Virus record (IMG/VR): IMGVR_UViG_2724679538_000002
Strand: one strand, 5' to 3'
Source of the DNA: a virus
Taxonomy: Duplodnaviria > Heunggongvirae > Uroviricota > Caudoviricetes
DNA length: 30,097 nt
Every line of letters starts with the position of its first letter. Position 1 is the stretch's first letter. This document shows, one piece after another, positions 10,962 through 11,731 of the stretch. Position numbers and translations under genes: made by a program. A model generated the notes under the pieces. It was given only the letters and a program-made list of their open reading frames with translations. It searched no databases and was not told the DNA's origin.

Positions 10962-11115
10962 AACTCCTGTACCGCTCATACCAAAACCGCTCACATATGG
11001 CGCAAGCCTAGACCTGAGTGTTGATTTGTTGTCAGCATTAGGGCAGTGCAATCAGGACAAAAAAGAAATCCGAATAATTGAGCAGCTGCGTAATAACGCC
11101 GATCAATATAAATAG
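10846..11115 (+). CDS. Rz1: o-spanin (Rz1-like lipoprotein), overlapped architecture
   Basis: A +1-frame ORF starting inside Rz. It has a lipoprotein signal with lipobox 'LLPLLTGC' and a proline-rich mature region 'VPVTPLPPSLTSETPVPLIPKPL', and extends 154 nt beyond the Rz stop. Confidence 0.6.
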   Translation: MMIVLHILCLLPLLTGCGSTRTVYVSVPVTPLPPSLTSETPVPLIPKPLTYGASLDLSVDLLSALGQCNQDKKEIRIIEQLRNNADQYK

Positions 11116-11185
11116 TATTAACAATACTGTATTGATTTTATTTTTTCGTTAGACTTTTCCATGAGTTATGGATGAGGTTAACGAT

Positions 11186-11530
11186 ATGAATATAAAAAAT
11201 TCAATTTTGTTAGTGATATCACTATTAGTGAGTGCTTGTGACAACGCACCTAAATTTGATGGTACCAGCCAGGAATCGCTCCGGTATTCAGCAGAAAAGG
11301 TCTTTGAGTCATTATCTGAAGAGAAGAAGGCCGAATTGAAAACGGCGATTGTCGATACTTTGGGGTACTACGATACTCAGGCAGAGTTAAGCAACGATAA
11401 AAGTTACTCTTCGAAGAAAATGAGTCAGGTAGTGTTCAATGGAAAAACGGCTGATCAGGTAATTTCCGAAGCTGCTACTTATCGGGAGAAAACAGAAAAA
11501 CTTATTCAACAATATCTGCACGAAAAGTGA
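11186..11530 (+). CDS. phage-encoded lipoprotein (moron), function unknown
   Basis: Signal peptide with lipobox 'MNIKNSILLVISLLVSAC'. RBS 'gaggt'. Visibly AT-rich. Followed by its own intrinsic terminator. Located between the lysis cassette and the terminase genes. Confidence 0.6.
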   Translation: MNIKNSILLVISLLVSACDNAPKFDGTSQESLRYSAEKVFESLSEEKKAELKTAIVDTLGYYDTQAELSNDKSYSSKKMSQVVFNGKTADQVISEAATYREKTEKLIQQYLHEK

Positions 11531-11535
11531 TAAAT

Positions 11536-11560
11536 GGCCGCAATGAGCGGCCTTTTACTT
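11536..11560 (+). terminator. intrinsic terminator after the lipoprotein gene
   Basis: Stem 'ggccgc'/'gcggcc' with loop 'aatga', followed by 'ttttactt'. Confidence 0.6.
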
Positions 11561-11731
11561 ATTATTTTTAGCGGGTCCTCCTGGCGATTTGAAACACCGG
11601 GGGGCTGTGGACACGCGGAAAACGGCTGGTTTTTTGCATTTTATCGGCATCATCATCTTTTATCTAACCTGTTGATATTTCAGTTGTGAAATTATTCATG
11701 ATGTCGATTCGCTTAAATATTGTTCACCATC

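Follow-up and report, generated by a model that had tools for sequence, protein, structure and literature searches.

A DUF6694 lipoprotein gene carried as moron cargo next to cos in a lambdoid Escherichia fergusonii prophage

In phage lambda, the interval between Rz/Rz1 and cos holds bor, a small AT-rich lipoprotein gene carried as cargo. Other small lipoproteins encoded by phages, Cor of N15 and phi80 and Llp of T5, are regarded as protective of lysogenic or infected cells. Systems described at the cytoplasmic membrane include Ltp of Streptococcus phages (TP-J34; PMC3952083), a small helical temperate-phage lipoprotein on the outer face of that membrane, and SieA and HK97 gp15, which are exclusion proteins of the inner membrane. 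Here we describe the interval corresponding to that of bor in a 30,097-nucleotide (nt) stretch of DNA (IMG/VR record IMGVR_UViG_2724679538_000002, referred to below as the window), which is a lambdoid prophage of Escherichia fergusonii with its local late genes all on the plus strand. The interval carries a gene for a lipoprotein of the DUF6694 family, followed by an intrinsic terminator, and this small cassette is probably exchanged horizontally among related phages.

A first-pass annotation of the window had placed a moron-type cargo gene behind the spanin genes and ahead of the terminase genes, at the position taken by bor in lambda, and the comparison with other phages bore out both the placement and the character of the gene. 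The o-spanin gene ends at 11115 on one side, and the DUF1441 and GpA-type terminase genes lie on the other. On the left, similarity to lysis cassettes of the SfV/SfII/SfIV type stops at 11061-11081, within the 3' end of Rz1 (megablast end points). On the right, the boundary is at 11567/11568, since three IMG/VR phages (L039 to L041) are 99.1 to 99.6% identical to the window from 11568 rightwards and unrelated to it leftwards. In these near-identical phages, exactly the same slot is filled by a minus-strand bor homologue (2115-2456 in L039), and the lysis cassette left of cos is a different one. As expected of a moron in the sense of Juhala and Hendrix, the segment is replaced in close relatives, has a terminator of its own and deviates in base composition.

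The block that forms the right boundary begins with a cosQ-like CGGGTCCT, and in a local alignment this region matched lambda TTTACGGGTCCT, which lies 35 to 23 nt before lambda's left cohesive end. Since the boundary coincides with the cosQ-like site, the DUF6694 gene is the last gene before cos. Whether or not they have the gene, most relatives share the cos-region block at 89 to 90% identity; in one (L004) the figure is 71%. Within it, GGGGGGCTGTGGAC, about 20 nt beyond the cosQ-like CGGGTCCT, resembles the lambda cohesive end GGGCGGCGACCT in a comparison made by eye only. The block also contains a terminator-like hairpin at 11615-11637, and a 51-amino-acid (aa) open reading frame (ORF) at 11534-11689 is probably spurious.

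The contents of the slot were then surveyed in 77 IMG/VR loci with a related small terminase gene (terS) and enough upstream sequence. DUF6694 genes were present in 11 of them, always 228 to 229 nt upstream of terS, followed by bor (3 loci), the lysozyme inhibitor gene ivy (1) and an HNH endonuclease gene (1), the rest being varied small ORFs of unknown identity. DUF6694 is therefore the most frequent identified cargo of the slot in this sample, and it is lacking in 66 of the 77 loci, including the three 99%-identical phages. The Ivy-family periplasmic lysozyme inhibitor is encoded at 2083-2511 of L013, an Escherichia coli prophage with a terminase of the same family. Alleles of the DUF6694 gene that are 65 to 77% identical and stand before the same terS follow at least four unrelated lysis cassettes. 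The variety of the slot contents and of the lysis cassettes to its left shows that the slot is a moron hot-spot.

The cassette also differs from its surroundings in base composition, as the first-pass annotation had noted for the ORF. The module at 11116-11561 has a G+C content (GC) of 0.374, compared with a mean of 0.515 for the whole window, 0.488 for the lysis genes and 0.535 to 0.560 for the terminase genes, which places it in the lowest 4.4% of 446-nt segments. The intrinsic terminator proposed to follow the ORF was likewise confirmed, as a hairpin (11536-11552) with a T tail. The centroid structure of the hairpin has an energy of -12.8 kcal/mol, and its minimum free energy (MFE) is -16 kcal/mol, with z = -2.7 against shuffled sequences. 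The hairpin is kept in relatives, with one compensatory change of a C-G to a U-A pair in an Enterobacter allele. The relative L039, which lacks the gene, does not have this hairpin sequence immediately before its cosQ, as read directly from the letters, no terminator scan of L039 having been made.

The likeliest start of the gene is the ATG at 11186, which is preceded by GAGG (11174-11177) with an 8-nt spacer and gives a product in line with the homologues, all of which are 112 to 115 aa long. An alternative in-frame ATG at 11168 would give a 120-aa form, present in some NCBI annotations, but this start is unlikely because of the spacing of the ribosome-binding site at 11186 and the lengths of the homologues. 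The signal peptide is encoded at 11186-11236 and the lipidated Cys18 at 11237-11239, with Asp-Asn next, so that the precursor reads MNIKNSILLVISLLVSA up to the cleavage site (...LLVSA/C) and CDN... after it. A pattern match upheld the lipobox LLVSAC seen in the first-pass annotation, Cys18 fitting the PROSITE PS51257-type lipoprotein pattern. The mature part has 97 aa, an isoelectric point of 5.2 and a mass of about 11 kDa.

The protein is a full member of the DUF6694 family (Pfam PF20404; E = 6e-12, 46.3 bits vs. a cut-off of 24.3, model positions 1-99 of 102), which is uncharacterised, and all its close homologues carry a precomputed PF20404 assignment. Among the PHROGs, it had a single match, phrog_7468, whose function is not known; the NCBIfam search gave no match, and beyond DUF6694 and phrog_7468 there was no Pfam or PHROG match with a good E value. 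It is 100% identical to WP_046082623.1, a "DUF6694 family lipoprotein" of E. fergusonii, and near-identical copies are found in E. albertii. We found no publication on DUF6694, PF20404 or the WP accessions. The family motifs are present, namely P-K-[FIL]-D after the Cys and G-K-T ahead of the last helix, and in an alignment of 26 sequences (22 to 75% identity) residues P22, D25, G86, K87 and T88 are at least 90% conserved. The lipobox Cys is nearly invariant across the family alignment.

Between alleles, the proportion of differences at synonymous sites (pS) was 0.73 to 0.83, i.e., saturated, while that at nonsynonymous sites (pN) was 0.14 to 0.25, giving a pN/pS of 0.18 to 0.28. The DUF6694 gene is therefore under purifying selection. 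At the same time, its nonsynonymous change is three to four times faster than that of the adjacent terminase (pN of 0.04 to 0.07).

The residue following the lipidated Cys bears on the location of the protein. Asp occupies position +2 in all 51 enterobacterial alleles, 49 of which read Cys-Asp-Asn, one CDD and one CDT. Asp at +2 is the LolCDE-avoidance signal that retains lipoproteins of E. coli in the inner membrane (PMC5727369). By this rule, the predicted location of the DUF6694 protein is the inner membrane; it lacks the mark of outer-membrane lipoproteins, which is a +2 residue other than Asp. Terada and colleagues are said to have found in 2001 that Asn, Asp, Glu or Gln at +3 strengthens the retention signal. 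The surface lipoprotein with a role in receptor masking that had been suggested for this ORF thus fits poorly with an Asp invariant in 51 alleles, the corresponding residues being Cys-Ala in Bor and Cys-Ser in Cor. Outside the enterobacterial group, position +2 varies, with Ser in 26, Gly in 20 and Asp in 17 of 95 sequences. What sets the phage-borne enterobacterial subfamily apart from the rest of DUF6694 is its invariant Cys-Asp(-Asn) start and its fixed position beside cos; other members have Ser or Gly at +2, and some are long forms of 250 to 305 aa.

An AlphaFold2 (AF2) model built on a 42-sequence alignment (predicted local distance difference test score, pLDDT, 95.5; predicted template modelling score, pTM, 0.84) has four helices, at mature residues 12-24, 28-51, 59-67 and 72-96, with a bridge between the K-F-D segment near the N terminus and the G-K-T loop, both of them conserved. 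Order begins about 5 residues past the lipidated Cys, and the helices start 5 to 11 residues after it. Since the ordered structure begins so close to the Cys, the domain would sit against the membrane. In a set of 35 distinct mature sequences from the subfamily, conservation is highest over the first 18 residues, in parts of helix 2 and at the NGKT motif, and variation is greatest in the last helix. A sequence-profile search of the PDB gave nothing, and the fold matches in the PDB included no specific solved relative.

We compared the protein with Bor, Cor and Ltp. The likeness to lambda bor lies in the kind of cargo and in its place; unlike the DUF6694 gene, bor is on the opposite strand, and Bor has Ala at +2 (outer membrane) in place of Asp. 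The homology to Bor and Cor for which the first-pass annotation had suggested searching was not found in the mature protein. BLASTP against lambda Bor gave no alignment at E <= 100, and no Pfam Bor match was obtained at E <= 1. The hhalign alignment with Bor covers residues 1-20 alone, i.e., the signal peptide, and that with N15 Cor rests on signal peptide residues 4-19, extending into the mature part only across two long gaps and with identities scattered. As no more than the signal peptide aligns, homology to either protein was rejected. Cor also differs from the DUF6694 protein in having Ser at +2 and in the position of its gene, in the tail-fibre region away from cos. The resemblance to Ltp is a functional analogy only, with another type of host and another genome position; there was no Pfam match to Ltp at E <= 1, and Ltp was absent among the PDB fold matches. 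The predicted topology may be likened to that of SieA and HK97 gp15. In PADLOC, the lone match was to a 2TM effector (E = 0.039) over the signal peptide region, the long forms had no matches, and a known defence system was rejected for lack of PADLOC support.

The upstream region had been thought to contain an operator or promoter element in the form of a perfect inverted repeat, AGTATT-AAC-AATACT. The repeat is present exactly where it had been placed; its proposed meaning did not survive. Perfect inverted repeats with 6-bp arms number 81 in the window (2.7 per kb), at least one occurs in 33% of shuffles of the local 140 bp, and no homologous cassette has a counterpart of this one. As an element of chance-level frequency that is not conserved, it was rejected.

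Two other upstream blocks are conserved across cassettes, TTCGTTAGACT, with a -10-like TAGACT box, and GGATGAGGT, with the ribosome-binding site, and the upstream 45 nt are 64 to 80% identical between cassettes although the synonymous sites of the coding part are saturated. The TAGACT box is kept in 12 of 14 aligned upstream regions; it reads TAGGCT in L026 and is replaced in L018 and in a chromosomal Klebsiella copy (L006). The relative L001 has TTGATA-16-TAGACT, which passes the promoter scan with 9 of 12 positions, and most Citrobacter and Salmonella alleles have GTGATA-16-TAGACT. In the window, a 4-bp difference puts TTGATT just 12 nt from TAGACT, and the box is the sole promoter-like element of the cassette that is retained. 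The pairs TTGATT-12-TAGACT and TTAACA-14-TATTTT, the former half of the latter lying in the inverted repeat, were rejected because their spacers are too short. An autonomous promoter is thus plausible for the cassette family and unproven for this copy.

The same region is predicted to form an RNA hairpin in the 5' leader (11146-11184; MFE of -15.3 kcal/mol, z = -4.1), and none of 200 shuffled sequences folded as well. RNA starting at 11162 has no predicted structure, so the hairpin would form only in transcripts begun upstream, e.g., by late read-through. RNAalifold over 7 cassettes kept 10 pairs, 3 of them with compensatory changes, in a set with only 4 distinct sequence types, and the leader hairpins of relatives are weaker and not significantly stable (z of -0.8 to -1.9). 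If real, the hairpin would mute late read-through transcripts and leave those from the cassette promoter translatable.

Alleles 62 to 77% identical to that of the window are common in Citrobacter, Salmonella enterica and Enterobacter, single sequences occurring on up to 789 contigs (species taken from the names of cluster members only). The gene did not turn up in 50,697 phage records (tblastn with the protein) or in 5,426 complete E. coli genomes (megablast with the window cassette and sensitive blastn with the L019 allele), and a scan of a one-genome-per-species collection with the close alignment yielded no confirmed relative. The DUF6694 family as a whole is broad in bacteria, with 60 cluster representatives at E <= 1e-3 in a single-sequence search and more in a profile search. 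Chromosomal copies outside prophages include a 52%-identical one in a Klebsiella island and a fixed Xenorhabdus locus between an aldehyde dehydrogenase gene and sprT. Since such homologues exist, the protein can function outside lytic growth.

The long-form DUF6694 proteins (250 to 305 aa) have a coiled coil and a further domain at the C terminus; in these proteins Pfam recognised DUF6694 only, plus one sub-threshold DUF2393 match (P0098; 25.0 vs. a 26-bit cut-off), with no functional lead. In three unrelated viral contigs, long forms of 273 to 295 aa (L032, 4959-5780; L034, 4869-5744; L035, 4857-5744) adjoin genes for proteins of about 940 to 1,090 aa that, from size alone, look like tape-measure proteins. 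A truncated 95-aa DUF6694 protein is encoded in Salmonella Typhi (L017, 4695-4982), between P2-like terminase/portal and P4-like epsilon/primase genes; a HIRAN protein gene and a reverse transcriptase gene are nearby, and the site may be a defence hot-spot.

We propose that the segment 11082/11116-11567 is a horizontally exchanged moron in a hypervariable slot between the lysis genes and cos. Its product would be processed by Sec and LspA and retained in the inner membrane by its Cys-Asp-Asn N terminus, where a tether of only some 4 residues would hold its compact four-helix domain of about 11 kDa close against the periplasmic side. A weak cassette promoter (the TAGACT box) and the terminator would allow expression in the lysogen, as the cassette architecture and the conserved -10-like box suggest. 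Q-antiterminated late transcripts would also cross the cassette and its terminator on their way to the terminase genes; by the lambda paradigm, they must include the gene because no terminator separates it from the spanins. Our best guess is that the lysogen would in this way obtain from its prophage an envelope factor that works at the inner-membrane surface. The anatomical core of this proposal we hold with good confidence, while the combined reading, in which the cargo cassette, the inner-membrane lipoprotein, expression in the lysogen and an envelope or exclusion function all hold, seems to us evenly balanced. The leading specific function, by analogy, would be interference with the genome entry of superinfecting phages, which we put forward tentatively and would not expect to hold; a more general envelope or host-fitness role, taken over from the chromosomal homologues, ranks close behind. 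In its most specific form, the proposal would make the protein the first exclusion factor known in Gram-negative lambdoid phages to be a lipoprotein tethered to the inner membrane, functionally matching Ltp of Gram-positive hosts and stopping the translocation of genomes at the periplasmic face. Which promoter is used would then decide on translation, the 11146-11184 hairpin folding the ribosome-binding site in late read-through and leaving it free in RNA from the cassette's own start, and the gene, as the last before cos, would possibly be the first to enter a new cell. We consider this whole chain improbable.

Several points weigh against the proposal. No published experiment was found for any DUF6694 protein, and profile, fold, hhalign and PADLOC searches showed no homology or fold likeness to known exclusion proteins or defence systems. 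The location in the inner membrane is a prediction by the Asp+2 rule. The promoter scan of the window found no canonical plus-strand sigma-70 promoter upstream of the gene, leaving lysogen expression of this allele unproven, and the terminator scan found none between the spanins and the gene, which could be simply a late gene. The conserved chromosomal copies in Xenorhabdus favour a general envelope role over phage exclusion.

The late-gene alternative takes up two of these points. An accessory gene of the late operon would serve lytic growth only, its product acting in the periplasm on the timing of lysis or on spanin, endolysin or holin, and the terminator would be incidental. In every locus the DUF6694 gene indeed shares its strand with the lysis genes, in most it comes directly behind the spanins (sometimes by only 54 to 84 nt), and a neighbouring phage has the periplasmic lysozyme inhibitor Ivy in this very slot. 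What makes the alternative unlikely in our view is that the gene is linked to cos and terS and not to the lysis cassettes, of which at least four unrelated ones precede it; that most phages with this terminase, the 99%-identical ones included, do without it; and that homologues reside on chromosomes outside prophages. Moreover, read-through transcripts are the very ones whose ribosome-binding site the predicted 5' hairpin would cover, and a purely late gene would have little use for a conserved terminator of its own. For a lipoprotein of the outer membrane or cell surface that the lysogen would make, with a function in receptor masking (as for Cor and Llp) or serum resistance (as for Bor), the argument is one of position, a lipoprotein in the bor slot with bor itself as the alternative cargo of near-identical phages. 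The invariant Asp at +2, mostly in Asp-Asn, is at odds with it, as is the very short tether of the AF2 model, with no reach across the periplasm, and neither BLASTP and hhalign beyond the signal peptides nor Pfam and PHROG matches connect the protein with Bor, Cor or other exclusion lipoprotein families; we regard this explanation as highly improbable.

A general housekeeping or stress lipoprotein of the envelope, acquired from a bacterial chromosome and giving the lysogen a modest benefit with no role in phage-phage conflict, would agree with the breadth of DUF6694 in bacteria, with the stand-alone Xenorhabdus and Klebsiella copies and with the lack of a PADLOC match. The faster nonsynonymous change of the phage-borne alleles relative to the terminase and the other cargo of the slot, bor and Ivy, which is of the conflict or virulence type, speak against such a role, neither of them strongly. 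This explanation is possible, if doubtful; it overlaps the inner-membrane envelope factor that we favour, the two differing solely in the kind of benefit.

The features of the locus are listed in Table 1. The window contains other cargo as well. A minus-strand gene at 5711-7042 (GC of 0.327), on the strand opposite the late genes and upstream of a DNA methylase gene, encodes a 443-aa P-loop nucleoside triphosphatase of the KAP family (Pfam E = 2.7e-70) and looks like further cargo, possibly of the defence type. Between the DNA methylase gene (7659-8711) and the holin gene lies a 174-aa ORF with no Pfam match (9016-9540, minus strand; GC of 0.40). At the corresponding position, L001 has a gene for KwaA (Kiwa) and one for a 294-aa partner, both on the minus strand, which makes this a second variable cargo slot.

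Table 1. Coordinates of the DUF6694 cassette and its neighbours in the window
Feature	Position	Strand	Remarks
Holin S gene	9755-10105	+	Pfam Phage_holin_3_1
Endolysin gene	10109-10585	+	
Rz gene	10569-10961	+	
Overlapped o-spanin gene (Rz1/LysC-like lipoprotein)	10846-11115	+	Pfam LysC, E = 6.5e-16; stop codon TAG at 11113-11115
Inverted repeat AGTATT-AAC-AATACT	11114-11128	.	Overlaps the Rz1 stop codon TAG (11113-11115); outside the cassette
Predicted 5' leader RNA hairpin	11146-11184	+	Pairs the -10-box region with the Shine-Dalgarno region (GAGG, 11174-11177)
-10-like hexamer TAGACT within TTCGTTAGACT	11150-11155	+	No -35 hexamer at 16-18 nt
DUF6694 family lipoprotein gene (114 aa)	11186-11530	+	Pfam PF20404; stop codon at 11528-11530
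Intrinsic terminator of the cassette	11536-11562	+	Stem GGCCGC/GCGGCC, loop AATGA, then T-rich tail TTTTACTTAT
Non-coding block between the DUF6694 gene and the small terminase gene			
Cos-region block, right boundary of the cassette	11567-11731	+	Begins with cosQ-like CGGGTCCT at 11571-11578
DUF1441 small terminase gene (terS)	11732-12238	+	
GpA-type large terminase gene	12242-14359	+	

The cassette is an ordinary kind of cargo, and much of what it displays is typical phage mosaicism that calls for no new principle. It does correct the intuition that a lipoprotein in the bor slot is a surface protein, since Asp at +2 points to the inner membrane and so narrows the possible targets. The natural near-isogenic phages that carry bor in place of DUF6694 amount to an allelic replacement at an otherwise 99%-identical locus. 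A single small gene is the most frequent identified cargo of a moron hot-spot in prophages of Citrobacter, Salmonella, Escherichia and Enterobacter, and, if the prediction holds, it would offer a handle for finding the function of DUF6694, a widespread lipoprotein family that studies have left untouched.

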